Shown: positions 37,538-63,551 of the stretch, piece by piece
How the letters are laid out: each line of letters begins with the position of its first letter
Position numbering within the stretch: position 1 is the stretch's first letter
NCBI GenBank assembly: GCA_965279375.1
Contig: OZ257156.1
Span: 1,504,001 to 1,568,000, forward strand
Direction: 5' to 3'
Length of the DNA: 64,000 nt
Source: Gemmatimonas sp.
Lineage (GTDB): Bacteria > Gemmatimonadota > Gemmatimonadetes > Gemmatimonadales > Gemmatimonadaceae
Translations under genes and position numbers: made by a program
The notes under the pieces: model-generated
Seen by the model: the letters and a program-made list of their open reading frames with translations, nothing else
Told to the model about the DNA's origin: nothing
The model's database searches: none

Positions 37538-39832
37538 ATGCATTCTTCCGCTCGCACGAACTCCGCGCTGCTGTGCGCACTGTTGACCGCGGCCGTCGCC
37601 GCTCCGCTGCAGGCGCAAACGATCCCGGTCGCAACGGCCGACAGCGCGCGCACTGTGCCTCATCGTGCGTTGCAAGAGCTCCTCGACGATGCGAGTCGGC
37701 GCAACGTGCTTCCGAGCTCGCTGATTTCGTACAAGTCGCAGGTGCAGACGGAGATTGCCGTGCTGCTGCGCCGCGAAGAGGGCACTGAGGCGGTGACGTT
37801 GGTGGAGCAGGTGGCCAGCGCACTCCGATGGACGCGGAGCGGCTACTACGATCAGCATGTGGTGGGCTATCGTGCACAACAGACGGGCGGCACGTTCTCG
37901 ATGCTGTCGGTCTTTCAGACGGGTTGGCTGCAGCCGGCGCTCTATGGCAATCGACTGCGCGTGACGCGGCGAACATCACCCGCGAGAACGGCCCGCGAAT
38001 CCGCGCGCGATGCGATGCGTTCGGCGTCGAGCGGTGGTTCGCAGAGCAGTCCGCAGGCCGTGTCGACTCGCGCCGACGGCGCGGACACGTTGCCCGCCGT
38101 GCATCCGCTGGCAACTGATCGCGCCACGTACTACCGCTACACTGGCGGCGATACGGTGGTCACCATGCAGGTCGGCGACCGACGCATTCCGATCGTGCAC
38201 GTGCGCGTGCAGCCGCGAGAGGATGTACGCAACCGCGTGCTGTTGTTCGATGGTGAGCTCGATCTCGATGCATCGCGCGGCGCGTTGGTGCGCATGCGCG
38301 GCAACTTCGTGCGGTTGAATGGTCCTCGCGGTCCGTTGGGGGGCAATCTCGTGGAAGCCGTCGCGTTCATCGAATACGAGAACGCCGAGCGACTCGGTGA
38401 ATACTGGCTCCCCGCCAAGCAACGCATCGAGCTGCAGGTCTCTTCACCCGTACTTGGTGATCAGCGCGCGGTGATTCGCATCGTGTCGCGCTTTGCACAG
38501 ATGGACGTGAATGACACGACGCTGAGTGCGGCGACATTGGCCACAGCTGACTCGACACGCTATGTCGGACGACGCAAGCTCAGCTTCGCCGCAGACGATT
38601 CGCTCAATCGCTTTGGCGACTGGCGCGGTGGCATCGGCGATCTGACGCAGGGCATGCACGCCGACGATTTCAACGACGTCGGACCGGATCGTTGGCGCAC
38701 CACGGGTGCACCGCGGCTCGACTACACTCTGCCGCGCGCCTCGGATGGCTTCCACTTCAATCGCGTGGAAGGCGTGTACACAGGCTTTGGAGTGAAAGCG
38801 TCGTTGCGCGATCTCGCGCCCGGCGTAGTGGTACGCGCGAACGCGGGTTGGGCGTGGGCCGAAGGCACAGCACGTGGTCGCCTGTCGGTGGAGCGTACGC
38901 GTGGTCCATGGACGATCGAAGCTCGGGGCGGCCGCTCGCTGGACAATACGAACGATTTCCGTGTCCCGTTCGACTCTGGTAGTACGTTCGGTGCGCTCTT
39001 CGGTTCGCAGGATCCGTACGACTACGTGGACCGCTCGAGCGCAACGCTGGCCGCGGTGCGCCGCATCGGCGCACGCAAGATGCTGGTACGCGCCGAGGCT
39101 GGCCTAGCCGACGATCGCTATCGTGCGTCGCAGTATGTGCGAGGTCCATTTGGTGGCGCGGCGTATCGCCCCAATCGCGGTATCGATGCTGGCAGTTATG
39201 TGCGTACCGCCGCCACCGTCGAGTGGCATCCGGACATCAGCGCTGAGTTCGTGCGGCCTGGATTGGGTGCGCGTCTGTACTACGAGCGTGGCGATGGAAC
39301 GCTGGCGTTTCAGCGCATCGAAGCGCGCATCGTCGGTCGTCGTCCGATCGGGCCGTTTGTCGCGGTCGCGCGAGGTGACGTAGGCACGGTGCTCGGTGAT
39401 CGCATTCCGGCGCAGCAACTCTTCGAACTCGGCAACCAACAGAATCTGCCCGGCTACGAAGACAAGGAGTTTGCCGGCACGCGTGCCGCGGTGTTGCGTG
39501 GTCAGTTGATGTACAACACCAAGTATCTGCAGCAGCCAATTCGACTCGGGCGCTTCTTCCTGCCGGCAGTTGCACCGAGTCTGAGCGTTGGTCTGCAGGG
39601 CGGTTGGACGGAGCTGCCAAACGCAGCGGCGCGGGCGGCCGCGCTTCGGCTCGGCGTGCAGCGTGATTCAGCCGGCGTGTTGCGCCCCGTCTCGCGCGCC
39701 ACGGACGGTGGACGCGCGAGTGTGTCTGCTGGCATGCGCTTCTTTGGCAGCGCGCTCTTTGTTGGAGCGACGCGCCCCGTGGATCATCCGGCCAAGTGGA
39801 AGGCGCAGGTGACGTTCGGTCAGCCCTGGTAA
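37538..39832 (+). CDS. Putative outer-membrane beta-barrel protein (DUF5686-like)
   Basis: Signal peptide (PLQAQ), FNRVEGVYTG, amphipathic beta-strands and an aromatic C-terminus (QVTFGQPW). Confidence 0.6.
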   Translation: MHSSARTNSALLCALLTAAVAAPLQAQTIPVATADSARTVPHRALQELLDDASRRNVLPSSLISYKSQVQTEIAVLLRREEGTEAVTLVEQVASALRWTRSGYYDQHVVGYRAQQTGGTFSMLSVFQTGWLQPALYGNRLRVTRRTSPARTARESARDAMRSASSGGSQSSPQAVSTRADGADTLPAVHPLATDRATYYRYTGGDTVVTMQVGDRRIPIVHVRVQPREDVRNRVLLFDGELDLDASRGALVRMRGNFVRLNGPRGPLGGNLVEAVAFIEYENAERLGEYWLPAKQRIELQVSSPVLGDQRAVIRIVSRFAQMDVNDTTLSAATLATADSTRYVGRRKLSFAADDSLNRFGDWRGGIGDLTQGMHADDFNDVGPDRWRTTGAPRLDYTLPRASDGFHFNRVEGVYTGFGVKASLRDLAPGVVVRANAGWAWAEGTARGRLSVERTRGPWTIEARGGRSLDNTNDFRVPFDSGSTFGALFGSQDPYDYVDRSSATLAAVRRIGARKMLVRAEAGLADDRYRASQYVRGPFGGAAYRPNRGIDAGSYVRTAATVEWHPDISAEFVRPGLGARLYYERGDGTLAFQRIEARIVGRRPIGPFVAVARGDVGTVLGDRIPAQQLFELGNQQNLPGYEDKEFAGTRAAVLRGQLMYNTKYLQQPIRLGRFFLPAVAPSLSVGLQGGWTELPNAAARAAALRLGVQRDSAGVLRPVSRATDGGRASVSAGMRFFGSALFVGATRPVDHPAKWKAQVTFGQPW

Positions 39833-42096
39833 ACGCGGACGCGCGTGCGAGAGCGGATATCGGCAGATGACGCGCCGAACTCGAACTCCACCGTGTCCGC
39901 CTCCAGCGACCAGGCGTGTGTCTCGCTGTTCCAGTACCGCAGCAACGACGCAGGCACCACGAAGCGCACGACACGCTGCTGACCCGGCTCGAGTGTGATG
40001 CGACGGAAGCCGCGCAGATCCTTGATCGAGCGCGTGACCTTGGACCCCACATGACGTGCGTAGAGCTGCACCACTTCATCACCGCGCCGCGTGCCCGTGT
40101 TCTTCACGGTGACGCTGACGGTCACACTATCGCTGCGGCGCAGCGACGTGCGATTGACCGTCGGCGAGGCGTATGAGAACGATGTGTAGCTGAGTCCATG
40201 GCCGAACGGATAGAGCGGCGTACCGCGAAAGAATCGATACGTGCGTCCTTCCATGTCGTAATTGTCGAACGCGGGAATGTCATTGACGCTCTTGTAGAAC
40301 GTCACCGGTAGGCGACCTGCCGGATTGTACGTGCCGAAGAGCACGTCCGCGATGGCGGTGCCGCCAGCCTGCCCCGGATACCACGCATCGACGATCGCCG
40401 GCACGTGATCCTGCGCCCAGTTGACCGCCAGCGCACTGCCGTTGAGCAGCACGAGCACCGTCGGCTTGCCCAACGCCGCCACCTTCTCGAGCAGATGCTG
40501 CTGCGCGGGCGGGAGGTCGATCGTGGTGCGATCACCGCCGCGAAATCCATCGATCTGCACCGGCATCTCTTCGCCTTCGAGACGCGGCGTCAAGCCGAGG
40601 AACAGCACGACTGCATCCGCGGCCTGCGCCACGCGCACCGCTTCGGCTTCGAGTGAATCGGCCGATGCGGTCGGCGCCACCGGCGTGCCATTCCTTCTCG
40701 CGAGCTGCGCGGTGGAATCGAACGGCGGGAATCCCTGCGCCAGATCGGAGCCGCGCGCGTGCAGCACGCGCGTGGTGCTGCCCACGGCGGCGCGAATGCC
40801 CTGCAGTGGCGTGACCGGATGCGAGGGCTCGCCGTTGTAGTTACCAAGTAGCATCCGTGGCTCGTCCGCGTTGGGGCCGATGACGGCAATGGTGCCCAGC
40901 GTCTTTCGCAGCGGAAGCACGTTGCCGCTGTTCTTGAGCAGCACGATCGATTCGCGCGCTGCCTGCAGCGCGAGCTCCTGATGCGGCTTCGAGTCGAGGA
41001 TGCTGAATGGGGTGCTGCTCCACTTCACGCGCGACGGTGCATCGAACATGCCCAGCTTCATGCGCGCGAGGAACAGCCGCGTGAGCGATGTGTCGATGGT
41101 CGCTTCGCTGATGAGCCCCTGCGCCACCGACTGCACGAGATTCGGATACACGCGACCGCAGTCGAGATCAGTGCCGCTCTTGACCGCGCTCGCCGCGGCC
41201 GCCGCCGCGGTCGGTTCGGTCTTGTGGCGCAGATAAATGTCATCGATCGCGCCGCAGTCCGATACGATGTAGCCGTTGAACTTCCACTCGCTGCGAAGGA
41301 TGTCGCGGAGCATCGGATCGCTGGCGCAGGCCGCCTTGCCGTCGATGCGATTGTAGGCGCACATGAGCGAGTACGCGCGCGCCTCACGAATGCCCATCTC
41401 GAAGTGCGGCAGATAGGTCTCGCGCATGTCACGCTCGCTCACACGCGCATCGAACGCATGACGTTCGGGCTCAGGGCCGCTGTGAACTGCAAAGTGTTTG
41501 ACGGTCGCGATCGTCTTGAAGTACTTCGGATCGTTGCCCTGCAAGCCGCGGATGAACTGCACGCCGAGTCGACCGGTGAGATACGGATCTTCACCGTACG
41601 TCTCCTGCCCGCGCCCCCAGCGTGGATCGCGGAAGATGTTGATGTTGGGTGACCAGAACGTCAGTCCCTGATAGCGCGCGTGGGAGTTGTTGCGAATGTA
41701 CTCGTGATACTTGGCGCGTCCTTCGTCGGAGATCACCGTCGCGACGCGAAACATCAGTGCCTCGTCCCACGTGGCGGCCATGCCGATCGCCTGCGGAAAC
41801 ACCGTGGCCAGCCCCGAGCGCGCGACACCGTGCAACGCTTCGTTCCACCAGTTGTAGGCGGGGATGCCAAGGCGCTCGATGGCCGGTGCGACATCCTTCA
41901 TCTGCAGCACCTTCTCCTCGAGCGTCAGTCGACCCACGATATCGCGCGCCCGTGCTTCGAATGACAGCGACTCATCACGCCACGGCTCGCGCGCCGTTGC
42001 CTGCGCGTTCGCGGAGGCGCGGGGGATGAGCAACGCACCGCTCAGCAGACCGACAGCGACGACGACTCGCGCCGCACCACGCTCGAGGTATTGCAT
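39820..42096 (-). CDS. GH3 beta-xylosidase/beta-glucosidase, exported, with an Fn3-like C-terminus
   Basis: WWNEALHG, RDPRWGRGQETYGEDP, KHFAVHSGPE, YIVSDCGAI, LEGEEM and DEVVQLY. Confidence 0.93.
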   Translation of the reverse strand: MQYLERGAARVVVAVGLLSGALLIPRASANAQATAREPWRDESLSFEARARDIVGRLTLEEKVLQMKDVAPAIERLGIPAYNWWNEALHGVARSGLATVFPQAIGMAATWDEALMFRVATVISDEGRAKYHEYIRNNSHARYQGLTFWSPNINIFRDPRWGRGQETYGEDPYLTGRLGVQFIRGLQGNDPKYFKTIATVKHFAVHSGPEPERHAFDARVSERDMRETYLPHFEMGIREARAYSLMCAYNRIDGKAACASDPMLRDILRSEWKFNGYIVSDCGAIDDIYLRHKTEPTAAAAAASAVKSGTDLDCGRVYPNLVQSVAQGLISEATIDTSLTRLFLARMKLGMFDAPSRVKWSSTPFSILDSKPHQELALQAARESIVLLKNSGNVLPLRKTLGTIAVIGPNADEPRMLLGNYNGEPSHPVTPLQGIRAAVGSTTRVLHARGSDLAQGFPPFDSTAQLARRNGTPVAPTASADSLEAEAVRVAQAADAVVLFLGLTPRLEGEEMPVQIDGFRGGDRTTIDLPPAQQHLLEKVAALGKPTVLVLLNGSALAVNWAQDHVPAIVDAWYPGQAGGTAIADVLFGTYNPAGRLPVTFYKSVNDIPAFDNYDMEGRTYRFFRGTPLYPFGHGLSYTSFSYASPTVNRTSLRRSDSVTVSVTVKNTGTRRGDEVVQLYARHVGSKVTRSIKDLRGFRRITLEPGQQRVVRFVVPASLLRYWNSETHAWSLEADTVEFEFGASSADIRSRTRVRVYQG

Positions 42097-43169
42097 CACT
42101 CCCCCACGGATTGAAGACAGGCACGCATGTACCCCAGTGCAAACGCCATCCCTGCGTGCCACGGTGCGGCGCAGGTCATCTCCGGCGTGTGATCTGGAAT
42201 GAGAACGCCGTCGTAGTGCGCACTCTTCAGGATCCGCACGATGCGCAGCATGTCGAGATCGCCTTCGTCGACGAACACTTCCTGATAGTGCGGCACTTTG
42301 CCTCGTACGTTGCGAAAGTGCACGTAGCCGATGCGTCCCGCGCGTGCGTAGCGATCCACGGCCGCATACACATCACCCTCGGGCATCTCCTGCAGCGAGC
42401 CCAGACAGCACTCCAGCGCGCTCGCACTGCTCGGCACGAGATCGATCATGCGCTGATATTTGTCCGGATGATTCACCAGTCGCGCGGCGCCACGCAGCGC
42501 GGTCGTTGGCGGATCGTCGGGGTGCAGTGCCATGCGCACGCCGCATTCCTCGGCGACTGGAAGGATCTGCGACAGGAACCACGCGTAGCGCTCCCACAAC
42601 TCCGACTCGGAGATCGGCGCGACGAAGCCCGGCGGTGCATCGGGATCGTAGACCATGTTCCACACCATGCCGTTGCGCATCGGCAGCTGCGGATCGATCT
42701 GCGATTCATCGTACACGAGTGCACGCGCACCGCCACGTCCAAGTGGGCCTTTGGTCCAGCCCCACACGCCGGCGATGCTGAAGTTGTAGCCCATGATCGG
42801 AATGCCCGCCTTGCCGACCGCCTGAATGGTGCGCTTGAGTGCTTCCATCTGCGTCGCCTTGTTCGGTCCATCCAGCAACACGTCATACCAGTGCGACGGA
42901 TCGAAATTCTCGATCGCTTCCCACACGAGGCCAGCGTCCTCGATCTGTCGCTTAATCGAGATCATCTCATCGTACGTCCACGGCTTGTCCTGATTGCGCG
43001 TCACGCCCCATCCAAGCGATGGCGGGCCCGAATCGAGAACGGGTGACGCGCCGGCGAAGTAGTCCACGAGATGCACGACGAGATGCGTCGCGCCCGCTTG
43101 CTTGGCGAACGCGAGATTGTCCGGCGTGAGCAGACTGCGATAGAGGCCGAGTCCCAGCTTCATTGCCAT
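42096..43169 (-). CDS. uxuA: Mannonate dehydratase family protein
   Basis: AIEN, YNFS, PVAEECGVRMALHPDDPP, HFRNVRG, EGDLDM, PDHTP and ALGYMRA. TGATG coupling to the GH3 gene. Confidence 0.85.
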   Translation of the reverse strand: MAMKLGLGLYRSLLTPDNLAFAKQAGATHLVVHLVDYFAGASPVLDSGPPSLGWGVTRNQDKPWTYDEMISIKRQIEDAGLVWEAIENFDPSHWYDVLLDGPNKATQMEALKRTIQAVGKAGIPIMGYNFSIAGVWGWTKGPLGRGGARALVYDESQIDPQLPMRNGMVWNMVYDPDAPPGFVAPISESELWERYAWFLSQILPVAEECGVRMALHPDDPPTTALRGAARLVNHPDKYQRMIDLVPSSASALECCLGSLQEMPEGDVYAAVDRYARAGRIGYVHFRNVRGKVPHYQEVFVDEGDLDMLRIVRILKSAHYDGVLIPDHTPEMTCAAPWHAGMAFALGYMRACLQSVGE

Positions 43170-43221: not shown

Positions 43222-45897
43222 CTACCAGCGGTCCGTGCGGAACGGTGCGGCGGGCAGTCCGGTTCTGTCGAAGAGCGATGCACGATTCGGGCTGTCCGAC
43301 CAGGCGTAGCGCACCGCGATGGGGGAGCGCACCTTGTCGCTCCACACCAGTAGATGCGACCCACGTACGCGCGACTTCGCCCAGACGAACTGCCGGTCAG
43401 CGCCGGCGATGGCGATACTCGACGTGCTGTCAGCGTCTGCGCGCTTCACGAGCGGGCCGCCCGTCACGACGAACTCGAGATCGACCGTATCGCCGCGCAC
43501 CGTGGAGCGTCGCAGCGTTGGCCCCGCATCGTGCACAACGCGACCGTACGCGACACGCTCCGCGACCAGCGCGAGACGCTGACCAACGTCGCGCTTGTTG
43601 CGTGGGTGAATGTCGCCCGCCTCACCAACGTCGATGGCGATCGCACGACCGGTCTTGGGCAGCGTCAACGCCGCCTCCATCGATTCACGCTGGGTCGCCC
43701 AGCCGCTGCTCGGCTGTGGCGTGCTCCATGGTTTGCCGTAGTTGGGGAGCTGCACCCACAGGAATGGCAGCGTGTCCGCGGACGGGCTCCACTGTTGGCG
43801 CCAGCTATTGATCAACAGCCCGAACTGGTCACGATATGCCGCTGCCTGCGCCACGTTGTTCGCGTTCGATTCGCCCTGATACCAGATGAAACCCTTCACC
43901 GGAAAACGCAGGATCGGGTGCACCATGCGGTTGTACAACACGCTCGGCACCTTGTTGATCACCTGACCGTCTTCGGCGAAGGAGAGCTGCTCGACCGAGA
44001 ACTTCCAGCTGCCGGCGAGTGATGTGCTCGATCCGTTGGCGAGGCGCAGTGCGATGTTGCCGTTGATGCCACCGCCGCCTCCGCCATCACTCACGCGAAT
44101 CGCCAGCACGTTGCGGCCCGAGCGCAGCGCAGCGGGTGCGATGCGATAGCTGCGCTCGACGTTGTAGCCAACCGTGCGACCGATCTCTGTGTCGTTCACC
44201 CACGCGACATCATCGTCGTCGATGGCAGAGATCTGGAGTGTTACGCCCGCTGCGGCATCGGCGGCCGAGAGTTCGAAGCTGGTGCGATACCACGCCACAC
44301 CGTCCATGCCATCGTAGCCGTTGGGTTCCCAATAGGCGGGCACCGGCATCGTGCGCCATGCCGAGTCGTCGAACGATGCGGACGACCAGCTGGACATCAG
44401 GGCGGCGCGCGGTGCCGTCGGAAGCGTGCCCACGCGTTCACGCAACGTCGCGCGCGTCTGCTCAGCGCGACGCGCGTTCGCCTGAAGCTCGGCACTCCAC
44501 GCGCTGTCGGAGATCCCCTGCGCCGGCCGACTGATCCACGTCTCGATATTGCTGCCGCCCCACGTGGTGTTGATGATCCCGATGGGAATCTTCTCGCGCT
44601 CACGCAGCGCCTTGGCGAAGTAGTAGCCGACCGCGGAGAACGCGCCTGCGTGCGCTGGATCAGCGGCCGACCATGCCCCGCCGGCCAACTCTGCAGCCGG
44701 TTCGTTCGACCACGACGTGGGAATCTTGAAGTGGCGAAGCAGGGGATCGTTCGCGCTGGCGATCGCACTCTTCGCGTCGAGTGACTGCTGGAGCATGAAC
44801 TCCATGTTGGACTGCCCGGACGCCACCCACACGTCGCCGATGGCCACGTTGGTGAATGTCAATCGCTCCGTGCCGCTGGCGATGGACAGCGTATGCGATG
44901 TTCCCGCCGCACGAGCGGGCAGCGAGACACTCCACTCGCCGCCGGGTGCAGCGGTCGTCGAGGTTTGTTGCGCATCGAGCGCGACGGTGATCGCTGCATT
45001 GGGTTTGGCCCAACCCCACACTACGATCGGCTTGTTGCGCTGCAGCACCATGCCGTTCGCGAAGAGCGGCGGAACGCGGAGTGCGGACGCTTGCGCAGTA
45101 GCGGAGGTGGGTGGCTTCGCACTGGGATCGCCGGTCGGCGGAGGCGCCTGATCCGTTGCGGCCGGCGGACCGAGTAGTTCAGTGAGCAGCGGCTTCAGGG
45201 CGTCTGCCCAGAGCTGATATCCTTTGACGGTTGGGTGCAACTTGTCCACCATCATGCCGTCGAACAGCACGCCATCCGCGTTGGCCAGCTTTTCGTTGAT
45301 GTTGATGTAGCGAATGGAGCTGCCATTGGCGAACCGCGCGAGATTGGCATTGATGCGATTGATCTCCGGCACCACCGCAATGTTGTCGTTGCGTGGGAAG
45401 ATGCCGGTGAGAATGATCGTCGCCTTCGGTGCCTTTGCTCGGCAGAGATCGATCAGCGCCTTGAGCCCGCGCGTGATGTCAGCGACCTTCGCGTCGTCGC
45501 CCACCGTGGTGCCCACGTTGTTGGTGCCAGCGAGCAACACGATCACCTTGGGGTTCACGCCATCGAGCTCACCGTTCTCTATGCGCCACAAAATGTGCTC
45601 GATTCTGTCCGCGCCCCAGCCAAAGTCGGCCGCATTCCACCCAAAGAAGTTCGACTTCCAGTTGGCCAGAAACTCCGGATAGTCCGTCGCGCCCCAACGG
45701 CGCGTGATGGAGTTGCCGAGGAAGTACAGATCGATCTTTCCCTTGGTGCGCTTCTCGAGCAGTTGCTCGTGCGCGAGCATGGAGTTGCGATCGGTGCGCG
45801 GTGTGGCGCGATCGGCGGGCCATTGCGCTGATACTGGCCGCGTAGCGACCGCGGAAAGCATCAGCGCCAGCAGCGCGCATCGAGCTCGAGTGGACAT
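43222..45897 (-). CDS. Double esterase: GDSL/SGNH domain fused to a sialate O-acetylesterase (SASA/CE20-like) domain
   Basis: N-terminal GNSIT, FGWGAD, AGTNN and DKLHP. Pro-rich linker. Then GQSNME, WGGS, WYQGESN and DIHP, with an inserted beta-sandwich (GVAWYRTSF). Confidence 0.85.
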   Translation of the reverse strand: MSTRARCALLALMLSAVATRPVSAQWPADRATPRTDRNSMLAHEQLLEKRTKGKIDLYFLGNSITRRWGATDYPEFLANWKSNFFGWNAADFGWGADRIEHILWRIENGELDGVNPKVIVLLAGTNNVGTTVGDDAKVADITRGLKALIDLCRAKAPKATIILTGIFPRNDNIAVVPEINRINANLARFANGSSIRYININEKLANADGVLFDGMMVDKLHPTVKGYQLWADALKPLLTELLGPPAATDQAPPPTGDPSAKPPTSATAQASALRVPPLFANGMVLQRNKPIVVWGWAKPNAAITVALDAQQTSTTAAPGGEWSVSLPARAAGTSHTLSIASGTERLTFTNVAIGDVWVASGQSNMEFMLQQSLDAKSAIASANDPLLRHFKIPTSWSNEPAAELAGGAWSAADPAHAGAFSAVGYYFAKALREREKIPIGIINTTWGGSNIETWISRPAQGISDSAWSAELQANARRAEQTRATLRERVGTLPTAPRAALMSSWSSASFDDSAWRTMPVPAYWEPNGYDGMDGVAWYRTSFELSAADAAAGVTLQISAIDDDDVAWVNDTEIGRTVGYNVERSYRIAPAALRSGRNVLAIRVSDGGGGGGINGNIALRLANGSSTSLAGSWKFSVEQLSFAEDGQVINKVPSVLYNRMVHPILRFPVKGFIWYQGESNANNVAQAAAYRDQFGLLINSWRQQWSPSADTLPFLWVQLPNYGKPWSTPQPSSGWATQRESMEAALTLPKTGRAIAIDVGEAGDIHPRNKRDVGQRLALVAERVAYGRVVHDAGPTLRRSTVRGDTVDLEFVVTGGPLVKRADADSTSSIAIAGADRQFVWAKSRVRGSHLLVWSDKVRSPIAVRYAWSDSPNRASLFDRTGLPAAPFRTDRW

Positions 45898-47420: not shown

Positions 47421-47421
47421 G

Positions 47422-48603: not shown

Positions 48604-48655
48604 GAGAAACGCCTTGTACGAAGGGTGAAAACTCGAACCGTGATGGGCCGGGCGT

Positions 48656-48695
48656 AGAACTCGAAAGAACTTGAAAGAGCTCGAGAGAACTCAGG
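48656..48695. repeat. Four imperfect 10-bp direct repeats upstream of xylA
   Basis: AGAACTCGAA / AGAACTTGAA / AGAGCTCGAG / AGAACTCAGG. Confidence 0.75.
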
Positions 48696-52146: not shown

Positions 52147-52175
52147 TTGACACGTTCCCGGCGGCATCACAATAT
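52147..52175 (+). promoter_or_regulatory. Putative sigma70 promoter of the susC operon
   Basis: Consensus TTGACA at 52147-52152, a 17-bp spacer, then CAATAT at 52170-52175. Confidence 0.6.
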
Positions 52176-52184
52176 GTCCGCCGA

Positions 52185-52196
52185 TGGAACGTTCCA
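52185..52196. promoter_or_regulatory. LacI-type operator TGGAACGTTCCA
   Basis: Perfect 12-bp palindrome with a central CG, just downstream of the putative -10 and between the divergent lacI and susC genes. Confidence 0.8.
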
Positions 52197-55500: not shown

Positions 55501-55602
55501 GACCCGTATATCCACACGAGCTACCTCGGCGCGGATCCGGAAGTGGCAGGTGCCGCACCGACCCTGCGCACGATTCTGTTCGGCAGCAACATCACCTGGT
55601 AG
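52516..55602 (+). CDS. SusC/RagA-like TonB-dependent outer-membrane transporter
   Basis: GGAGGG RBS, signal peptide, carboxypeptidase-regulatory-like N-domain, VVVGYG, PLYVVDG, VLKDASATAIYGSRGANGVILVTTKKG, RSDGSSR, LKLRASYG and NPDLTWEKT. Confidence 0.95.
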   Translation: MRRWKLALTLMLLTPLQLFAQSVGRIVGTVTIEGGRPLPNATVNVVGTALGATTGADGKYVIANVPTGSQSVRAKLLGYTPITSVVSVANGQTATLNFSLITAPLNLEGIVVVGYGSQEKRNVTGALTTITADKMKDIPTSDPMKALQGRVSGVEIVTNSNEPGASMQVRIRGVRSMASDRNEPLYVVDGIPINGGIGDFNPAIIENITVLKDASATAIYGSRGANGVILVTTKKGASDGRIQTSYSVDSYYGAQTPVQIVPMMNMRDFTKYLQDAAFYNGQDSSLAKVLAGQTFVPGSTTSKRLYAYQNGIETDWQRAVLRDGLQKNFQGSITGSAAGTRFTLSGNYFNQQGVIPGQGSTRGNAFATVDHQGKFFRAGATFSLSRSLQELGIGQGAFGYATAMAPFGSPFNYTTKDSAGLYDPRPDDDPLNINPLLEALSMTREQTTTRAFSSVYAELQLRPWLSYRANFGPDYSNSSLGCYNDPWTHGSCASPGNFSSNQGQPPQAMLRNSTDFAYTVDNLLQLNKDFGVHHIEGTALYSIQKDRFTRDSLYSSQLPYNTQLWYDLGSGVAGNSLSSISEWALQSYMGRINYTLLDRYTLSATGRSDGSSRLAPGNKWAFFPSFSAAWQLGDESFIKNRGWFDQLKLRASYGTTGNTSIAPYQTQGTLSSKLYTFGSTRVRGYRPGSIPNPDLTWEKTASTNYGLDFGVLSNRISGSIDAYSQNTTDLLLTRLLPVTSGFTSTLQNVGSTNNSGIDISFSTINVQNWHGITWTSDMNWSRNKNKITALQTGSQSDVNNVWFVGQPINLFNQTTGAGDGQRRVFYDWKWQGVWQYADSLAMKAFNANGSTFKAGDPRVADINGDGRINADDRTIVGTSYPKWTGSLYNRIAWKGFDISGLVSWKQGYTFIDGTPRSYTGRQGVIADMDYWTPTNPTNKNPLPNIGQVERLYATTRLYTDGSHWRIRNLTLGYTMSQRLVNRIGAQSIRFYGTAQDPYIHTSYLGADPEVAGAAPTLRTILFGSNITW

Positions 55603-55631: not shown

Positions 55632-57446
55632 ATGAAGCGCGGACTTCTTTGCACCGTGACGTTGGCGCTCGCCGCAGTCGCCGGTTGCACGGACCTCGAC
55701 GAGAAACTCATTACGGGCGTGAGCAGCGAGTACTACTCCACGCCTGATGGCCTGAACGCCGCCGTGATTGCCAGCTACAGTCAGCTGCGCAACTACTACG
55801 GCCGTGAGCAGCTGATCTCGCTGGCGCAGGCCGGTACGGATACGTGGTCAGATGCCGACCAGTCGGCGTCGAACAATCGCGAGTTCGGTGGCTACACCGG
55901 TGGTTTGAACAGCACCGTCGCGCCGCTGGCGAACACGTGGAACCCCGCGTACCAGATGATCAACACGCTGAATGCGGCGTTGGAGCGCGGGCCGAACACC
56001 ACTGGCATCACCACGGCGACGAAGAACTCACTGCTGGGCGAGGCGCACTTCCTCCGCGCCTTCGAGTACTTCATGCTGGTGCAGACGTTCGGCAGCGTGA
56101 CGTTGTCGATGAAGGAGAACAAGGGGTTGGTGGAGACGGCGGTGCGTGATACGGCATCCGCAGTGTACACCGCCATTCTCGCCGATCTCGACAGCGCGAT
56201 CACGCTGCTGCCTGTGACGCAGGCCGAGCGCGGTCGTGCCACGCGTGGTGCAGCGCGCGCGCTGCGATCCAAGGTGTACCTCACGCGCGCGTATCGTGCG
56301 TACTCACCCAGCAGGCAGGCCGACTTTCAGGCTGCGCTCGATGACGCGAAGGCCGTGATTGCGTCGGGCACATACTCGCTCACCCCCAACTACGCCGACC
56401 TGTGGTGCGTGGCGCGCGCGGCCGATCCGGGTCGTCAGGGCTACTGCGAGAACACCGGCTACAACCAGGCACAGAGCGAATTCATCTTCACCGTGCAGTT
56501 CTCGTACGACCAGACGCACTACGACGGTGGGGATCAGTACAACTATCTGCACCTCGTGTACCTGAGCCAGTACGACAACAATGCGTTTGGCGTAGGTGTG
56601 GCGCGTGACCTCAACAACGGGCGCCCGTTCCGTCGTCTGATGCCGACGCAGTACGGTCTCAAGGTGTTCGACAATCGCTGGGCCGGCACACCAGGCGCGA
56701 GCGACATCATGGATACGCGCTTCGATGGTTCGTACCAGACCGTGTGGATCGCGACAGCTGGTGGCCAGCGCAACCCGACGACGAACTGCCCGTTCTGCTC
56801 GAGCGGCGAGGTGGTCAACATCGGCGACACGACCGGTGTGTATCTGCCGCATCCCGTGACGACGGCGTTCCGTCAGAGCAAGAAGTACATGATTCGCACC
56901 ATCTGCCCCGCCGGCTACGCCGACCCGAGCGTGTACTGCGGCGATCGCTCGGGCGCGAGCGATGGCTACATCAGCTGGGACCGCTATCCGTCGCTCAAGA
57001 AGTTCCAGGACAACCTGCGAGCGAACCTGACGGCGCAGGAAGGCGGCAAAGTGCAGGTGCTGCTGCGTCTTGGCGAGATCTACCTGATTGCAGCCGAAGC
57101 GGCGCTTGGCTTGGGCAACACGGCCGAAGCGGCGGCCAACATCAATGTGCTGCGTGTGCGGGCCGCGACACCGGCGTACAAGAACGATCCTCGGCAGCTC
57201 GTGACGGCGGGACAGATCAACCTCGACTTCATCATGGATGAGCGCGAGCGCGAACTGGCCGGTGAGTTCACGCGCTGGTACGATCTGGTGCGCCCGGGCG
57301 CGCAGTTCTTCGTTGATCGCGTGAAGAAGTACAACCCGCACGGCGGCGTGAACGTGCAGCTCAAGCATGCCCTGCGTCCGATTCCGCAGTCGCAGATCGA
57401 CGGCGTTGTGGTGGGTCCCAAGTATCCGCAGAATCCCGGCTACTGA
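55632..57446 (+). CDS. SusD/RagB-like surface lipoprotein
   Basis: Lipobox VAGC, GEAHFLRAFEYF.LVQTFG, LRLGEIYLIAAEA and DERERELAGEFTRWYDLVR, ending QNPGY. Confidence 0.93.
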   Translation: MKRGLLCTVTLALAAVAGCTDLDEKLITGVSSEYYSTPDGLNAAVIASYSQLRNYYGREQLISLAQAGTDTWSDADQSASNNREFGGYTGGLNSTVAPLANTWNPAYQMINTLNAALERGPNTTGITTATKNSLLGEAHFLRAFEYFMLVQTFGSVTLSMKENKGLVETAVRDTASAVYTAILADLDSAITLLPVTQAERGRATRGAARALRSKVYLTRAYRAYSPSRQADFQAALDDAKAVIASGTYSLTPNYADLWCVARAADPGRQGYCENTGYNQAQSEFIFTVQFSYDQTHYDGGDQYNYLHLVYLSQYDNNAFGVGVARDLNNGRPFRRLMPTQYGLKVFDNRWAGTPGASDIMDTRFDGSYQTVWIATAGGQRNPTTNCPFCSSGEVVNIGDTTGVYLPHPVTTAFRQSKKYMIRTICPAGYADPSVYCGDRSGASDGYISWDRYPSLKKFQDNLRANLTAQEGGKVQVLLRLGEIYLIAAEAALGLGNTAEAAANINVLRVRAATPAYKNDPRQLVTAGQINLDFIMDERERELAGEFTRWYDLVRPGAQFFVDRVKKYNPHGGVNVQLKHALRPIPQSQIDGVVVGPKYPQNPGY

Positions 57447-57483: not shown

Positions 57484-59787
57484 ATGTTGCCGTACAAGAA
57501 TGCTGCGCTTTCCGCCGCGGCCCGCGCGGCGGACCTGCTGTCTCGGATGACAGTGGAGGAGAAGGCGGCGCAGATGATGTGTGTCTGGCAGGACAAGCGC
57601 ACGACGCTGCTGGGTGCGGATGGAAACTTCGACGTGAACGTCGCGCGGCGGGCGTTCGCGTCGGGGCATGGTCTTGGGCAGGTGGGACGTCCAAGCGATG
57701 CAGGCAGTACGCCCACCACGCCTGCCGACGGCAAGACGGCGCGTGGGCAAGCCGAGCTGACCAACGCGATTCAGCGGTTCTTCATCGAGGAAAGTCGGCT
57801 TGGCATTCCGGTCGTCTTTCACGAGGAATGTCTGCACGGTCAGGCGGCGGTGGGCGCGACGAGTTTCCCGCAGCCGATCGGGCTGGCGGCGACGTTTAAC
57901 CCGGCGCTGGTCGAGTCGTTGTACGCGATGACCGCGGAGGAGGCGCGTTCGCGAGGGACGCATCTCGCGCTCACGCCCGTGGTGGACATCGCGCGTGACC
58001 CGCGCTGGGGACGCGTGGAAGAGACGTTCGGCGAGGATCCACATCTCGTCACGCGCATGGGCATTGCTGCCGTGCGCGGCTTTCAGGGCGATGCGACGTT
58101 CCGCGACAAGACGCGCGTGATGGCGACGCTCAAGCACTTCGTTGCGCATGGGCAGCCGGAGGGCGGACAGAACTGCGCGCCCACGAACGTGTCGCAGCGC
58201 GAGCTGTACGAAGTGTTCCTGCCGCCGTTCAAGGCGGCGGTGCAGGAAGCCGGTGCGATCAGCGTCATGGCGTCATACAACGAAGTGGATGGTGTGCCAT
58301 CGCATGCGAACCGTTGGCTGCTGCGCGATATGCTGCGGAATGCGTGGGGCTTCACCGGCTTCGTGGTCAGCGACTACTACGCGATCTGGGAGTTGCACTA
58401 TCGCCCGGATACGCACGGGCACTTTGTCGCGCACGACAAGCGCGAGGCATGCGCTCTGGCCGTGCAGGCCGGCGTGAACATCGAGCTCCCCGAGCCCGAC
58501 TGCTACACGCATCTCACGGCACTCGTCGCCGACGGCACGCTCGCGGAATCGCAGCTGGATGAGCTGGTGGCGCCGATGCTGCGCTGGAAGTTCGCGATGG
58601 GGCTCTTCGACGATCCGTATGTCGATCCCGCCGTCGCGGAACGGGTGGTTGGATCAGCGGCGAACGCGTCGCTGGCGCGCAAGGCAGCGCAGGAAGCGAT
58701 CACGCTGCTGAAGAACGAGGGTGCTCTGCTGCCGCTATCGCTCGATACACTACGAACGATCGCGGTGGTGGGGCCCAACGCCAATGTGCCACTCCTTGGC
58801 GGCTACAGCGGTGTGCCGGAGCATCCAGTCACGGTGCTCGAGGGGATCACGGCGCGTGTTGCTGGCGCAGCAAAGGTGGTTCACGCCGAAGGGTGCCGCA
58901 TCACCATCGGCGGGTCGTGGCAGGAGGACGCGGTGGTGCCGAGCGATCCGGCAGAGGATCGCCGCATGATCGCCGAGGCTGTCGAGGCGGTGCGTGATGC
59001 GGATGTGATCGTTCTGGCGATCGGTGACAATGCGCAGACGTCGCGCGAGGCATGGTCGTTGGTGCACATGGGCGATCGTACGGCGCTGGACCTTATCGGG
59101 CAGCAGAACGAGCTGGTGGCCGCGATGGTCGCAACTGGGAAGCCTGTGGTCGCGTTGCTGTTCAACGGTCGGCCAATCTCGGCCACGTATGTTGCGGAGC
59201 AGGTGCCCGCGGTACTCGAGTGCTGGTATCTCGGGCAGGAAGCGGGACATGCCGTCGCCGACGTGCTCTTTGGCGACGTGAATCCTGGCGGGAAGCTGCC
59301 GATCTCGGTGCCGCGCTCAGTGGGGCACATTCCGGCGTTCTACAATCACAAGCCATCGGCGCGTCGCGGCTACCTGTTCGATGACGTGTCGCCGCTGTAC
59401 GCGTTCGGGTATGGGTTGAGCTATACCACCTTCGCGCTTTCGAATGTGCGGCTCGAGCACGACACAATAGCGCGTGACGGCCGCACGCGTGTGCACGTGG
59501 ATGTCACCAATACGGGATCGCGCGCGGGCACCGAGGTGGTGCAGCTGTACGTGCGCGATCTCGTGAGCACGGTGACGCGCCCGGTGAAGGAGCTCAAGGC
59601 CTTTGCGAAGGTGGCGCTCGAGGCTGGCGCAACGACTACGGTGGTGCTCGACATCACGCCCGAGTCGCTCGCCTTCTACGACTACCAGATGCAGTACGTC
59701 GTCGAGCCGGGGGAGTTCGCCATCATGGTTGGGACCTCTTCGCGCGACACCGATCTGACGACTCTGACGCTCCGCGTCAGCTCCTGA
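57484..59787 (+). CDS. GH3 beta-xylosidase/beta-glucosidase with no signal peptide
   Basis: HEECLHG, RDPRWGRVEETFGEDP, KHF, VVSDYYAI and GYGLSYTTF. AAGGAG RBS. Confidence 0.93.
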   Translation: MLPYKNAALSAAARAADLLSRMTVEEKAAQMMCVWQDKRTTLLGADGNFDVNVARRAFASGHGLGQVGRPSDAGSTPTTPADGKTARGQAELTNAIQRFFIEESRLGIPVVFHEECLHGQAAVGATSFPQPIGLAATFNPALVESLYAMTAEEARSRGTHLALTPVVDIARDPRWGRVEETFGEDPHLVTRMGIAAVRGFQGDATFRDKTRVMATLKHFVAHGQPEGGQNCAPTNVSQRELYEVFLPPFKAAVQEAGAISVMASYNEVDGVPSHANRWLLRDMLRNAWGFTGFVVSDYYAIWELHYRPDTHGHFVAHDKREACALAVQAGVNIELPEPDCYTHLTALVADGTLAESQLDELVAPMLRWKFAMGLFDDPYVDPAVAERVVGSAANASLARKAAQEAITLLKNEGALLPLSLDTLRTIAVVGPNANVPLLGGYSGVPEHPVTVLEGITARVAGAAKVVHAEGCRITIGGSWQEDAVVPSDPAEDRRMIAEAVEAVRDADVIVLAIGDNAQTSREAWSLVHMGDRTALDLIGQQNELVAAMVATGKPVVALLFNGRPISATYVAEQVPAVLECWYLGQEAGHAVADVLFGDVNPGGKLPISVPRSVGHIPAFYNHKPSARRGYLFDDVSPLYAFGYGLSYTTFALSNVRLEHDTIARDGRTRVHVDVTNTGSRAGTEVVQLYVRDLVSTVTRPVKELKAFAKVALEAGATTTVVLDITPESLAFYDYQMQYVVEPGEFAIMVGTSSRDTDLTTLTLRVSS

Positions 59788-59809: not shown

Positions 59810-61189
59810 ATGTCACAGGACTCAGAGAAGCTGTCGGTGAAGGAGAAGATTGGCTACGGCATCGGTGATGCTGCAGCCAACTTCATCTTTCAGACGATGA
59901 TCATCTTCCAGCTCGCCTTCTATACCGACACGTTCGGTATCACGGCGGCGGCGGCTGGAACGCTGTTCCTCGTCGTTCGGGTGTTCGATGCGGTCTTCGA
60001 TCCGTTGATGGGCATCGTTGCTGATCGCACGAACACGCGATGGGGAAAGTTCCGTCCATGGATTCTCTGGACTGCGGTGCCGTTTGGCGTCATGGGGTGG
60101 CTCACCTTCAGCACGCCGGACCTGAGCGCCAGCGGCAAGCTGATGTACGCCTACATCACGTACATCGTGCTCATGATGGTGTACTCGGCGAACAACCTGC
60201 CGTACTCTGCGTTGAGCGGCGTGATGACGGGCAACATCGGCGAGCGCACGAGCCTGTCGTCGTATCGCTTTGTCTGCGCAATGTTGGCGCAGTTGGTCAT
60301 CCAGGGCGCTGCGTTGCCGATGGTGCACTACTTCGGACAGGGTAACGACGCCAAGGGGTATCAGGCCACCATCGGCGTGTTCTCGGTGCTGGCGGTGATC
60401 TTCTTCGTGATCACGTTCTTCACGACAAAGGAGCGCATTCTTCCTCCGCCCGATCAGAAGTCCTCGATCGCGCAGGACTTTGGCGACTTGCTCAAGAATG
60501 GCCCGTGGATCGCGATGTTTGCGCTCACGGTTGTGCTGTTCGTGACGCTGGCGCTGCGTGGTGGTGTGATGCTCTACTACTTCAAGTACTATCTCGTTCG
60601 CGAAGATCTGTTCAGCCTCTTCAACGTGCTGGGCACCGGCGCGACCATCGTTGGCGTGTTGCTCTCCAAGCCGATGTCGCTGCGCTTCGGCAAGCGGAAT
60701 CTGTTCATCGCCGGATTGCTGGCGACGGTGGTATTCACGGCGGCGTTCGCGTTGCTGCCGCCCGCGTCCATCTCACTGATTGTGGCGACCGAGATGCTGC
60801 GTCAGTTCGCCTATGGCTTCACCATTCCGCTTCTGTGGGCGATGATGGCGGACGTGGCTGACTTCTCCGAGTGGAAGACACGCCGCCGCGCGACGGGCGT
60901 GGTGTTCTCGGCGATCGTGTTCGGACTCAAGGCGGGACTGGGCGTCGGCGGCGCGATTGGCGGCTACGTGCTCTCGGCGTACGGCTACGTGCCCAACGTT
61001 GCGCAGAGCGCATCGGCGCTGGATGGTATTCGGCTGAGCGCGAGTCTCTTCCCCGCAATCGGCTTCCTGTTGTGCGTGGTGTGTCTCTACTTCTATCGCA
61101 TCGATCGATCGATGGAAGTGCAAATCACCGAAGAGCTGACCGAACGCCGCAAGGGCTTTGGCGATACGCTCGTCGCGGCGGGCGCATGA
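59810..61189 (+). CDS. GPH-family (glycoside-pentoside-hexuronide) MFS cation symporter
   Basis: EKIGYGIGD, DAVFDPLMGIVADRT.TRWGKFRPW, NLPYSAL and ERT, with about 12 TM helices. Confidence 0.92.
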   Translation: MSQDSEKLSVKEKIGYGIGDAAANFIFQTMIIFQLAFYTDTFGITAAAAGTLFLVVRVFDAVFDPLMGIVADRTNTRWGKFRPWILWTAVPFGVMGWLTFSTPDLSASGKLMYAYITYIVLMMVYSANNLPYSALSGVMTGNIGERTSLSSYRFVCAMLAQLVIQGAALPMVHYFGQGNDAKGYQATIGVFSVLAVIFFVITFFTTKERILPPPDQKSSIAQDFGDLLKNGPWIAMFALTVVLFVTLALRGGVMLYYFKYYLVREDLFSLFNVLGTGATIVGVLLSKPMSLRFGKRNLFIAGLLATVVFTAAFALLPPASISLIVATEMLRQFAYGFTIPLLWAMMADVADFSEWKTRRRATGVVFSAIVFGLKAGLGVGGAIGGYVLSAYGYVPNVAQSASALDGIRLSASLFPAIGFLLCVVCLYFYRIDRSMEVQITEELTERRKGFGDTLVAAGA

Positions 61190-62427
61190 GCACCTGCACC
61201 TCGAATGCCGCGAGCTCGCGCATCAACTCGCGTATCAACTCACGCAGCAACTCGCGCGTGACGGCGAGTGGCATTGCATTGACCTGCCTCGCGGCTCTTG
61301 GTGCGTGCGCTGGCTCGAGCGCTGTTGTGCCGGCGGCGGCTCCGACACCCATCCCCGCGCGCGCGGCGGCCAACGTTCCCCGGTTGGCTGATGTCTTCAA
61401 GGATCAGTTCAAGATCGGTGCGGCGATCAACGCGACACAGATCATGGAGCGCGATCCGGCCGGTAACGCGCTGGTCGAAGCGCAGTACAACACCATCTCG
61501 CCGGAGAACATCCTCAAGTGGGAAGTCGTGCACCCCAAGCCGGGGCAATACGACTTCACGTTGGCCGACAAGTTCGTGGCGTATGGCGAAGCAAAGAGGA
61601 TGTTCATCGTCGGGCATACGCTCGTCTGGCACAGCCAGACGCCGAGCTGGGTGTTTCAGGACTCGAGTGGTGCCGCGCTGACTCGCGACGCGCTCATCGA
61701 GCGGATGCGTGATCACATCCACACCGTTGTCGGTCGATACAAGGGGCGCATCAACGGGTGGGATGTGGCGAATGAAGTGCTCGAGGAAGACGGCACCATG
61801 CGCAAGTCGTCTTGGCTGCGAATCATCGGCGACGACTTTGTGGAAGTGGCCTTCGGGTTCGCGCGTGAGGCCGATCCGAACGTTGAGCTGTACTACAACG
61901 ACTATTCGCTGGAGAATCCGGCAAAGCGCGCTGGAGCGGTAGCGCTGATCAAGCGATTGCAGGCGAAGGGGATTCCCGTCAAGGCGATCGGCATGCAGGC
62001 GCATTTCAAGATGGATTGGCCGTCGGTGGGGCTCGAAGATTCCACGATCGCCATGTTCGCTGCGCTGGGTGTGAAGGTGAACATGACGGAGCTCGACATC
62101 GATGTGCTTCCGCAGGCCGTTCGATCAAATGGTGCCGACGTTGCCACGCGCGGCCGCAACAGTGCGGCGATGAATCCGTACGTGCGCGGACTGCCTGCCG
62201 ACAAGCAGGAAGCGCTCGCGCGACGCTATCGCGAGATGTTCGAAGTGTTCCTCAAGCATCAGGACGTCATCGATCGCGTGACATTCTGGGGCGTTGCTGA
62301 TGGTGACTCCTGGCTGAACAACTGGCCCGTGCGAGGCCGCACCGCGTATCCGTTGCTGTTCGATCGCTCGCACGAGGCCAAGCGCGCCTTCGATGCGGTG
62401 ATCTCGACGATGCGTCGCGTTCCATGA
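61186..62427 (+). CDS. GH10 endo-1,4-beta-xylanase, lipoprotein
   Basis: LGAC lipobox, PENILKW, GHTLVWHSQ, WDVANE, YYNDY and TELD. ATGA overlap. Confidence 0.94.
   Translation: MSTCTSNAASSRINSRINSRSNSRVTASGIALTCLAALGACAGSSAVVPAAAPTPIPARAAANVPRLADVFKDQFKIGAAINATQIMERDPAGNALVEAQYNTISPENILKWEVVHPKPGQYDFTLADKFVAYGEAKRMFIVGHTLVWHSQTPSWVFQDSSGAALTRDALIERMRDHIHTVVGRYKGRINGWDVANEVLEEDGTMRKSSWLRIIGDDFVEVAFGFAREADPNVELYYNDYSLENPAKRAGAVALIKRLQAKGIPVKAIGMQAHFKMDWPSVGLEDSTIAMFAALGVKVNMTELDIDVLPQAVRSNGADVATRGRNSAAMNPYVRGLPADKQEALARRYREMFEVFLKHQDVIDRVTFWGVADGDSWLNNWPVRGRTAYPLLFDRSHEAKRAFDAVISTMRRVP
61213..61260 (+). repeat. Four imperfect 12-bp tandem repeats in the GH10 leader
   Basis: AGCTCGCGCATC / AACTCGCGTATC / AACTCACGCAGC / AACTCGCGCGTG, encoding SSRI-NSRI-NSRS-NSRV. 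Confidence 0.8.
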
Positions 62428-63551
62428 TGCGGACACGACCGCACGCAATGCGCGGCGCCTTCTGCGTAGCCCTGAGCGCGACTCTGTTGGCCGCTGCGTG
62501 CGGTGGCGGCGCTGATGGTCCAACGTTGCCGCCCACGCCGGTGATACCCGTAACGCCTCCCGCGCCGGCGGTGGTGACCCCACTGCGTACGCTCGCCGAA
62601 ACGCGTGGCTTGCGTATTCGAATCGGCGCCGCGGCCGGATCGCTCTTCAACACTACGGACGCAACGGGGCAGCAGTTCATGAAGACGTTGGCGGACGAGT
62701 TCAACGCGCTCACGCCAGAGAACGAAATGAAGTTTGGCGCGTTGCAGCCGAGTCGCGGGGTGTTTCGGTATACGCGCCCGGACTCGATGGTGGCGTTTGC
62801 AAAGGCGAACAACATGCAAGTGCGCGGGCACACGCTCGCCTGGCACAGTCAGCTGCCGTCGTGGATCACCAGCGGCACGTGGACTGCGACTGAGGCAAAG
62901 CAGTTGCTCGATGCACACATCGGCGCTGTCGTGTCTCACTACAAGGGACAGTTGGCCGCATGGGATGTGGTGAACGAGGCGTGGACCGATGGCGCGCCGA
63001 CACTGCGCCCGGGCTTCTGGTCTGACCGGTTGGGGCGCGGATACGTGGAGCAGGCGTTTCGCACGGCGTACGCGGCGGACTCCACGACGCCTCTGTACTA
63101 CAACGACTACAACATCGAGCCGGTCAACGCGAAGTCCGACAGTGTCTATGCAATGCTGTCCGATCTGAAGCGTCGTGGTGTGCCGGTGCACGGCGTTGGC
63201 ATGCAGATGCATCTCATTGCTGGATCGCTGCCGTCGATTGCGTCAGTGGCGGAGAACTTTGCTCGCTTCGCCGCGCTGGGGCTCAAGATCCAGATCACGG
63301 AAATGGACATTCGACTTCAGACGCCCTCCACGCCGACAACGCTGGCCACACAGGCGCAGAACTATCGCGACATCCTCAACGTCTGTCTGCAACAGTCCGC
63401 GTGCAACATGGTGGTCACGTGGGGCGTCAGCGACCGCGCGTCATGGATTCCGGGCACCTTTGCCGGCTTTGGTGAGGCGCTGCTGTTCGACAACGCTTTC
63501 GCGCGCAAACCGGCGTATACCGCCGTGAACGATCTGCTGGCAGGCAAATAG
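62424..63551 (+). CDS. Second GH10 endo-1,4-beta-xylanase, lipoprotein
   Basis: LAAAC-GGG lipobox, Pro/Thr linker, PENEMK, GHTLAWHSQ, WDVVNE, YYNDY and ITEMD. Confidence 0.94.
   Translation: MMRTRPHAMRGAFCVALSATLLAAACGGGADGPTLPPTPVIPVTPPAPAVVTPLRTLAETRGLRIRIGAAAGSLFNTTDATGQQFMKTLADEFNALTPENEMKFGALQPSRGVFRYTRPDSMVAFAKANNMQVRGHTLAWHSQLPSWITSGTWTATEAKQLLDAHIGAVVSHYKGQLAAWDVVNEAWTDGAPTLRPGFWSDRLGRGYVEQAFRTAYAADSTTPLYYNDYNIEPVNAKSDSVYAMLSDLKRRGVPVHGVGMQMHLIAGSLPSIASVAENFARFAALGLKIQITEMDIRLQTPSTPTTLATQAQNYRDILNVCLQQSACNMVVTWGVSDRASWIPGTFAGFGEALLFDNAFARKPAYTAVNDLLAGK

Follow-up and report, generated by a model that had tools for sequence, protein, structure and literature searches.

A 16-gene susC–susD locus found in a 64-kb stretch of a Gemmatimonas genome (the stretch as a whole is termed the window and the genome G000) very probably encodes the uptake and digestion of acetylated 4-O-methylglucuronoxylan, with a LacI-family regulator likely repressing it at the palindrome TGGAACGTTCCA and a spare uxuA-like dehydratase (U1) likely handling the methylated glucuronate. 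This assignment draws on gene families, gene order, signal types, conservation in relatives and a palindrome that matches the distribution of lacI, all of which were read from sequence. It is possible, though more tentative, that the locus belongs to a native Gemmatimonadota family of glucuronoxylan polysaccharide utilization loci (PULs) in which U1 and an enolase-superfamily dehydratase (MR) would have converged on cofactor-free methanol lyase activity, each taking off the 4-O-methyl group of xylan's glucuronate by beta-elimination. Little is known of the carbon sources of Gemmatimonadota, which are difficult to grow in culture; the locus suggests a concrete substrate for them, hardwood glucuronoxylan, along with a sharply defined predicted operator.

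Gene content and proposed function of the xylan locus

Profile searches recovered all 13 genes of the cluster described in the original prediction, in two divergent runs, and raised the total to 16 with the addition of a GH115, a GH43 and an aldose 1-epimerase. The leftward run (− strand) consists, from the divergent gap outwards, of lacI (50979..52025; PF00356 and PF13377), a GH67 alpha-glucuronidase with a signal peptide and a start that overlaps the lacI stop (48727..50982; three GH67 Pfam domains), the xylose isomerase XylA (47422..48603), the xylulokinase XylB (45918..47420; TIGR01312 score 543.6, cut-off 380), a secreted double esterase of the GDSL+SASA type (43222..45897), U1 (42096..43169) and GH3a, a beta-xylosidase-like protein with a signal peptide (39820..42096; PF00933, PF01915 and Fn3; best NCBIfam match Xyl3A, 904 against a cut-off of 1250). 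The rightward run (+ strand) consists of a SusC-type TonB-dependent transporter (52516..55602; TIGR04056 716.8, cut-off 368; TIGR04057 66.9, cut-off 46.2), a SusD lipoprotein (55632..57446; PF07980, E 5.5e-32, and PF14322), GH3b, a likely cytoplasmic beta-xylosidase that lacks a signal peptide (57484..59787; Pfam and NCBIfam profiles), a GPH-family inner-membrane symporter (59810..61189; TIGR00792 412.6, cut-off 231), the xylanases GH10a (61186..62427; best PDB matches 4K68, 1UQY and 4PMV) and GH10b (62424..63551; best PDB matches 1XYZ and 1VBR), and a GH115 alpha-glucuronidase of 1145 residues (63600..64000, continuing to G000:1571037). Outside the window the run continues with a GH43 carrying a C2 domain (G000:1571034-1572797) and the aldose 1-epimerase (G000:1572794-1573918), beyond which opposite-strand genes are met. 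Because the intergenic gaps are short (0–123 bases) and several stop codons overlap the following start, two operons are likely. Two long opposite-strand open reading frames (ORFs; 46570-48657 and 50964-52265) were rejected as genes, as they match no Pfam family.

Both GH10s match PF00331 over nearly the whole profile and keep both catalytic glutamate motifs, and a lipobox or lipobox-like Cys occurs in SusD, both GH10s, the GH43 and the GH115. XylA passes the cut-off for the Arthrobacter type (TIGR02631 565.6, cut-off 447) and falls far below TIGR02630 (123, cut-off 533); an Arthrobacter-type isomerase is common to this locus and its relatives, and differs from the class found in Bacteroides and Xanthomonas. 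In the double esterase, an N-terminal GDSL/SGNH domain precedes a CE20-like acetylesterase, in which residues 275-891 (the C-terminal 617) align end to end with PDB entry 7KMM (E 4.8e-166), the structure of XacXaeA, the founding CE20 member; the split SGNH core, the inserted domain and the Ser and His motifs (GQSN and HP) are all kept. Among solved structures, 7NEK, a SusD from a xylo-oligosaccharide PUL, matches the locus SusD best (E 1.2e-35, residues 23-374 only; next match, 1.2e-22).

With susC and susD adjacent on one strand, TIGR04056 and PF07980 over cut-off, and both a regulator (LacI) and the carbohydrate-active enzymes (CAZymes) for one glycan co-located (two GH10, two GH3, GH43, GH67, GH115 and the esterase), the gene families support the original claim of a susC–susD locus for acetylated glucuronoxylan, accompanied by lacI, in Gemmatimonadota. 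Tandem susC–susD, co-located CAZymes, a regulator and an inner-membrane transporter are features shared with PULs as defined in PULDB (PMC5753385).

In the system proposed here, the lipoprotein GH10s would cut xylan and SusD and SusC would import the oligomers, whereupon, in the periplasm, the double esterase would strip acetyl groups, GH67 and GH115 would strip (methyl)glucuronate, and GH43 and GH3a would shorten the chains. The GPH symporter would carry short xylosides inward, for GH3b, the epimerase, XylA and XylB to feed xylose into the pentose phosphate pathway, while a xylan-derived sugar would release LacI from an operator behind the susC promoter and from a second site inside the GH67 gene. 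Glucuronate would pass through UxaC, UxuB, UxuA, KdgK and Eda, all encoded outside the locus. The catabolism originally attributed to the cluster thus holds for xylose but not for uronate, for which the locus has one atypical gene only, with uxaC, uxuB, uxuA, kdgK and eda elsewhere.

A rather unlikely alternative to digestion of the polymer is that the locus scavenges xylo-oligosaccharides from other microbes, with the lipoprotein GH10s facing the periplasm and the polymer left intact. Each GH10 consists of a single domain, a Pfam search found no carbohydrate-binding module in either, no SusE/F-like gene occurs among the 16, and the SusD of 7NEK, the nearest solved, does not bind glycan alone and comes from an oligosaccharide PUL; nor does a lipobox-like Cys by itself place the GH10s at the cell surface, a point that counts against attack on the polymer. 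Conversely, two endo-xylanases, a GH43 and a GH115 that all carry such a Cys argue against scavenging, and the GH115 and the CE20/CE15-type esterases of relatives suit a long, substituted substrate.

Two domains of the locus recur in other arrangements. In relatives (L029:4094-6361, L032, L072, L091 and L216) a glucuronoyl-esterase (CE15-like) domain is fused to a GDSL domain with 79% identity to the one in the double esterase; the esterase modules are shuffled. The GH115 begins with a lipoprotein module of about 100 residues that resembles a TonB plug (within window positions 63600-64000; also in L014, L016, L029, L030, L034, L084, L223 and L234). Nine genomes have this module fused to GH115, and in a further 14 it is encoded separately by a small gene within or next to the locus. 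The module's match to Pfam Plug is below cut-off (E 0.0032), but a profile of it matches the plug regions of eight SusC-size ORFs of G000 and no reversed ORF.

Distribution of the locus in Gemmatimonadota

The host, guessed from the sequence to belong to the Gemmatimonadota, was confirmed at the level of Gemmatimonas (Gemmatimonadaceae): an ortholog of the locus SusD occurs in 5 of 36 same-genus genomes (79–87% identity), and G000 is a single contig (5,309,734 bases; 99.95% complete; 0.95% contamination; 65.4% GC), from whose GC content the locus genes (60–67%) do not deviate. Two sets of genomes were compared, a draw of 201 Gemmatimonadota genomes and, separately, 26 locus-bearing genomes (G000 and 25 others). 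Counts for the draw include G225, flagged as unpublished, which is positive for SusC and not among the genomes positive for GH67, GH115, U1, MR or UxuA.

The presence of susCD outside the Bacteroidota, presented at first as surprising, proved to be no surprise. SusC passes its cut-off in 163 of the 201 genomes, in G000 alone 23 SusC exceed it and SusD is found at 16 places, and two Gemmatirosa plasmids carry 16 matches. PULDB had extended susCD PUL prediction to the Gemmatimonadetes by 2018 (PMC5753385). The presence of susCD in the phylum was largely known already, and this glucuronoxylan locus is a variant. A literature search found no glucuronoxylan PUL described from Gemmatimonadota, although PULDB's own genome tables may list one; PMC4891872 names Gemmatimonadetes solely in its references.

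A scan of species genomes identified 29 loci, 25 with a SusD 59–87% identical to that of the window and four from Bacteroidota with a SusD at 34–39%. Among the 25 related loci, susC adjoins susD in 24, with GH10a following in 19 and the remainder cut by contig ends. Within the draw, GH67 was found in 7 of 201 genomes and GH115 in 5 of 201, with carriers spanning three families and two orders. Judged by these gene matches, the xylan locus is rare but native to Gemmatimonadota. The tree of SusD sequences left out L034 and L037 (short or frameshifted matches), L040, L041, L007, L010 and L011.

It is highly improbable that the locus is a recent transfer from Bacteroidota or an assembly chimera. 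The listed ESM Atlas clusters for SusD are all mostly Bacteroidota (the sole name they add is ‘SusD’) and just 5 of the 36 same-genus genomes carry the locus SusD, both of which would fit a transfer. But the single 5.31-Mb contig with its low contamination and genome-like GC, the 25 syntenic loci at 59–87% against 34–39% for the best Bacteroidota SusD, and the occurrence of related loci in a different family and order of Gemmatimonadota largely refute a recent one. The native locus may nonetheless go back to an ancient ancestor shared with Bacteroidota or to an ancient acquisition from them.

Some relatives differ in content. Those of the GntR type (L017, L018, L019, L027, L029, L033 and L035) have a monosaccharide ABC transporter inside the xylan locus; in G000 the same transporter lies about 70 kb from the locus (G000:1469565-1473087). 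Another genome, G068 (L020 / L234; of unstated completeness), has two tandem susC–susD pairs and a B12 methyltransferase, with neither U1 nor MR and no match to the UxuA family.

Predicted LacI operator

The divergent gap contains a perfect 12-base palindrome, TGGAACGTTCCA (52185..52196), which is probably the operator of LacI, as indicated by its distribution. It is the single exact copy in 5.31 Mb (0.23 expected) and occurs in all six other genomes with a LacI ortholog and at none of the 19 SusD loci without one. In L025 the palindrome stands before three rearranged units (three sites), moving with the genes. It resembles known LacI sites, which are even palindromes with a central CG (PMC4052901). 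Upstream lies a candidate susC promoter, TTGACA-17-CAATAT (52147..52175, + strand). Alignment of the lacI–susC gap from four genomes revealed two invariant islands, TTGACA and TGGAACGTTCC; the promoter spacing is kept in all four regions, the TGGAACGTTCC island is present three times in relatives, and L013/L014/L021 have three copies of the palindrome.

A one-mismatch copy inside the GH67 gene (50474..50485; the second-best weight-matrix score in the genome) is found in four of the five genomes with lacI directly before GH67, in two registers nine bases apart, and in none of the 13 GH67 genes from non-LacI genomes that cover the spot. We infer from this pattern that it is a second operator, which would block read-through from lacI as a roadblock or loop the DNA. 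Several observations count against these assignments: one-mismatch palindromes also occur in two of the four Bacteroidota loci, at three other places in G000 and in the Gemmatirosa locus L172, and a generic promoter and terminator scan returned 0 sites, with the candidate susC promoter below threshold. No paper giving the operator sequence TGGAACGTTCCA was found in the literature search.

LacI had been taken as the mark of a hybrid between Bacteroides and Xanthomonas designs, a view that was not sustained. The ortholog (75–81% identity) is present in 6 of the 25 other locus-bearing genomes, which form with G000 one starred clade on the SusD tree, whereas 13 of the 25 carry GntR near GH10a instead, and the Bacteroidota susCD locus L040 has a divergent LacI of its own. 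Since LacI is limited to one clade, with GntR elsewhere and LacI also at L040, its control of the locus is better regarded as a local swap.

Comparison with known xylan systems

Xylan PULs of Bacteroides ovatus and Prevotella bryantii comprise SusC/SusD, GH10, GH3, GH43, GH67, GH115, an esterase and a GPH symporter, and the window locus has the same set of enzymes and transporters. It differs from them in its Gemmatimonadota host, in LacI or GntR in place of a hybrid two-component system (none was found among the 16 genes or the next seven downstream ORFs), in its single-domain GH10s, in having an Arthrobacter-type XylA and XylB inside the locus, and in a SusD only 34–39% identical to the best Bacteroidota matches. 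The xylan CUT system of Xanthomonas campestris (XylR), said to have been described by Dejean et al. in 2013, reportedly contains LacI, GH10, GH67, GH3, a GPH symporter and an acetylesterase. Likenesses to it are the LacI in the locus, GH10, GH67, GH3, the GPH symporter and the esterase, whose best PDB match is the Xanthomonas XacXaeA, whereas a TIGR04056-class transporter, uronate pathway genes outside the locus and a different class of xylose isomerase (PRK12465 89, cut-off 888) set the window locus apart, as does its SusD, which also separates it from the Xanthomonas/Caulobacter CUT systems, whose TonB-dependent receptor has no SusD. By its gene content, the locus is a PUL in the PULDB sense and neither of the Bacteroides/Prevotella nor of the Xanthomonas sub-kind, since it lacks a hybrid two-component system and has a SusD. 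Bacteroides/Prevotella xylan PULs and their regulator types are covered in PMC12125979, and the predicted mode of action of the locus resembles that of the Bacteroides, Prevotella and Xanthomonas xylan systems.

A spare dehydratase in the locus

For the gene originally named UxuA, membership in the family stands (PF03786, E 1.9e-52), but identity with canonical UxuA does not. U1 scores below the NCBIfam cut-offs (TIGR00695 111, cut-off 199.6; PRK03906 150, cut-off 191), which the canonical copy of G000 exceeds (377 and 464), and the two are 31% identical and 440 kb apart. Canonical uxuB and uxuA share a GntR operon, kdgK and eda are located near it, and uxaC is grouped with galacturonate genes; uxaC, uxuB, uxuA and eda all pass their cut-offs. 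Because a full canonical uronate set is present elsewhere in G000, U1 is regarded as spare, and, as a divergent mannonate-dehydratase paralogue, it is a candidate eliminase of the 4-O-methylglucuronate pathway.

The structural model of U1 (pLDDT 82) has the ManD fold (Foldseek E 1e-21, TM 0.73), and the metal-site residues, common to 92 U1 and 24 canonical sequences, are kept (His216, Cys255, His284 and Asp326, plus His327). While U1 shares fold and metal site with canonical UxuA/ManD (3BAN, 4EAC and 1TZ9), it is only about 30% identical to these enzymes, coexists with a canonical copy and has His338 in place of the Tyr of the GYG motif (residue 345 of the 3BAN chain), which we take to be catalytic in canonical mannonate dehydratase. 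The position is His in 98% of 92 U1 sequences and Tyr in 96% of 24 canonical ones, and the N-terminal RW motif of the canonical enzymes is also replaced.

Exchange of U1 and MR and the methanol-elimination proposal

MR, the enolase-superfamily dehydratase, is unrelated to U1 and directly precedes GH67 in 10 genomes; the gene at this place in relatives had been guessed to be a ROK regulator, an assignment that was rejected. Among the 26 locus-bearing genomes, U1 occurs in 12, MR in 13, both in none and neither in one, and the label changes at least four times on the SusD tree. Canonical UxuA is present in 21 of the 25 genomes with U1 or MR. In the phylum draw, U1 or MR is found in 6 of 7 GH67 carriers, 5 of 5 GH115 carriers and none of the 194 GH67-negative genomes, although canonical UxuA occurs in 24 of the 201; U1 occurs in two genomes, both GH67 carriers, and MR in exactly the four other GH115 carriers. 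The sole GH67 carrier without U1 and MR (G216) is also without UxaC and UxuA. In 8 of the 12 genomes with U1, the gene lies behind one resembling uxuB, and in 7 canonical uxuA comes after it, an arrangement of one reductase with two dehydratases.

The glucuronate of xylan is mostly 4-O-methylated, and UxaC and UxuB together turn C4 of glucuronate into C3 of mannonate, the carbon at which the dehydratase eliminates. By the proposed route, 4-O-methylglucuronate would be converted by UxaC and UxuB to 3-O-methyl-mannonate, with its methoxy group on the carbon where mannonate dehydratase removes water, and U1 would eliminate methanol from it to give 2-keto-3-deoxygluconate; relatives without U1 would use MR for the same step. 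Methanol elimination is proposed because two unrelated eliminase folds replace each other and track the alpha-glucuronidases, and it is quite possible, if short of probable on this evidence, that U1 performs it. Unlike the reaction of corrinoid-dependent O-demethylases, the step would be a cofactor-free beta-elimination. The larger stake lies in how bacteria dispose of the methyl ether of 4-O-methylglucuronate, an abundant plant sugar. If the proposal is true, the family now annotated as ‘mannonate dehydratase’ (7,815 proteins at E ≤ 1e-60) would be re-annotated to include the missing step in 4-O-methylglucuronate catabolism, soils and waters would have a route for turning hemicellulose into methanol, and full use of xylan in fermentation would be affected. 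A literature search, with subscription journals mostly outside its coverage, found no enzyme that demethylates 4-O-methylglucuronate or eliminates its methyl group. No pyrroloquinoline quinone (PQQ) alcohol dehydrogenase was over cut-off in G000.

Two other roles for U1 were weighed. In the first, U1 would be an ordinary second mannonate dehydratase, a xylan-controlled isozyme adding flux, with the methyl group removed by another enzyme or not at all; this appears somewhat improbable. The shared ManD fold and metal site are consistent with it, as are the public names seen for U1 homologues (‘mannonate dehydratase’ throughout, and the only name in ESM Atlas). So too are L096, L102 and L103, where a complete hexuronate operon contains U1 and no other uxuA was seen. 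A B12 methyltransferase, which could remove the methyl first, adjoins U1 in 6 of 80 metagenome loci and in Gemmatirosa, and occurs in 5 of the 25 U1/MR genomes (6 of 32 searched). However, the remaining 20 of the 25, G000 included, have no B12 methyltransferase match, the conserved Tyr is replaced, the seven genomes with U1 and canonical uxuA in tandem in one operon would gain no new regulation from U1, and U1 and the unrelated MR exclude one another, which implies a requirement left unfilled by canonical UxuA.

In the second, which is unlikely, U1 and MR would dehydrate another sugar acid met by xylan users (for example D-xylonate formed by xylose oxidation, L-arabinonate, gluconate or gulonate) or would act on 4-O-methylglucuronate itself, eliminating methanol to give 5-keto-4-deoxyuronate for KduI/KduD. 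Plasmids of Proteobacteria carry homologues of U1 and MR within sugar-acid clusters unrelated to xylan, adjoining lactonases, short-chain dehydrogenases/reductases and epimerases of oxidative pathways; a Gfo oxidoreductase lies near U1 in L072 and L223; KduI of G000 is over cut-off, with KduD just under; and the nearest solved sequences to MR are glucarate-dehydratase-related proteins of uncertain substrate. Yet U1 and MR sit with uxuB, uxuA, uxaC or GH67 and not with pentose genes, XylA and XylB are already in the locus, and U1 also occurs in GH2-type loci without xylan genes (L172).

The L096-type operons, the proteobacterial clusters and the B12 methyltransferases all weigh against methanol elimination by U1, and two further points do as well. 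Of the 80 metagenome U1 loci, which agree with the proposal in part, GH115 or GH67 was found in 13, GH2-type genes in 10 and the B12 methyltransferase set in 6, leaving 55 without a glucuronidase or B12 gene (25 of 42 at ≥8 kb), a count made without a matched canonical-uxuA control. In addition, the related genomes are kin, not independent, and many are incomplete.

Additional observations at U1 loci and beside the locus

Genes for a URO-D methyltransferase, a corrinoid protein, a RACo activator and a homocysteine methyltransferase adjoin U1 or occur in locus-bearing genomes (L172:21165-27349, on a Gemmatirosa plasmid; L134, L137, L147, L167, L168 and L169; L236-L241) and are absent from G000. 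At the other flank of the window locus, a 764-residue secreted protein (37538-39832, + strand) converges on GH3a; it matches no Pfam or NCBIfam family and occurs in no related xylan locus, and so is probably outside the locus. In several Gemmatimonadota loci a GH2-malectin gene, followed by a protein of about 1000 residues whose only match, a weak one, is to the GH2 barrel (E 6e-7), precedes uxuB–U1 (L092:526-6209, L094-L096, L099-L104 and L172:13319-19080), and the two may be an undescribed glucuronidase pair.

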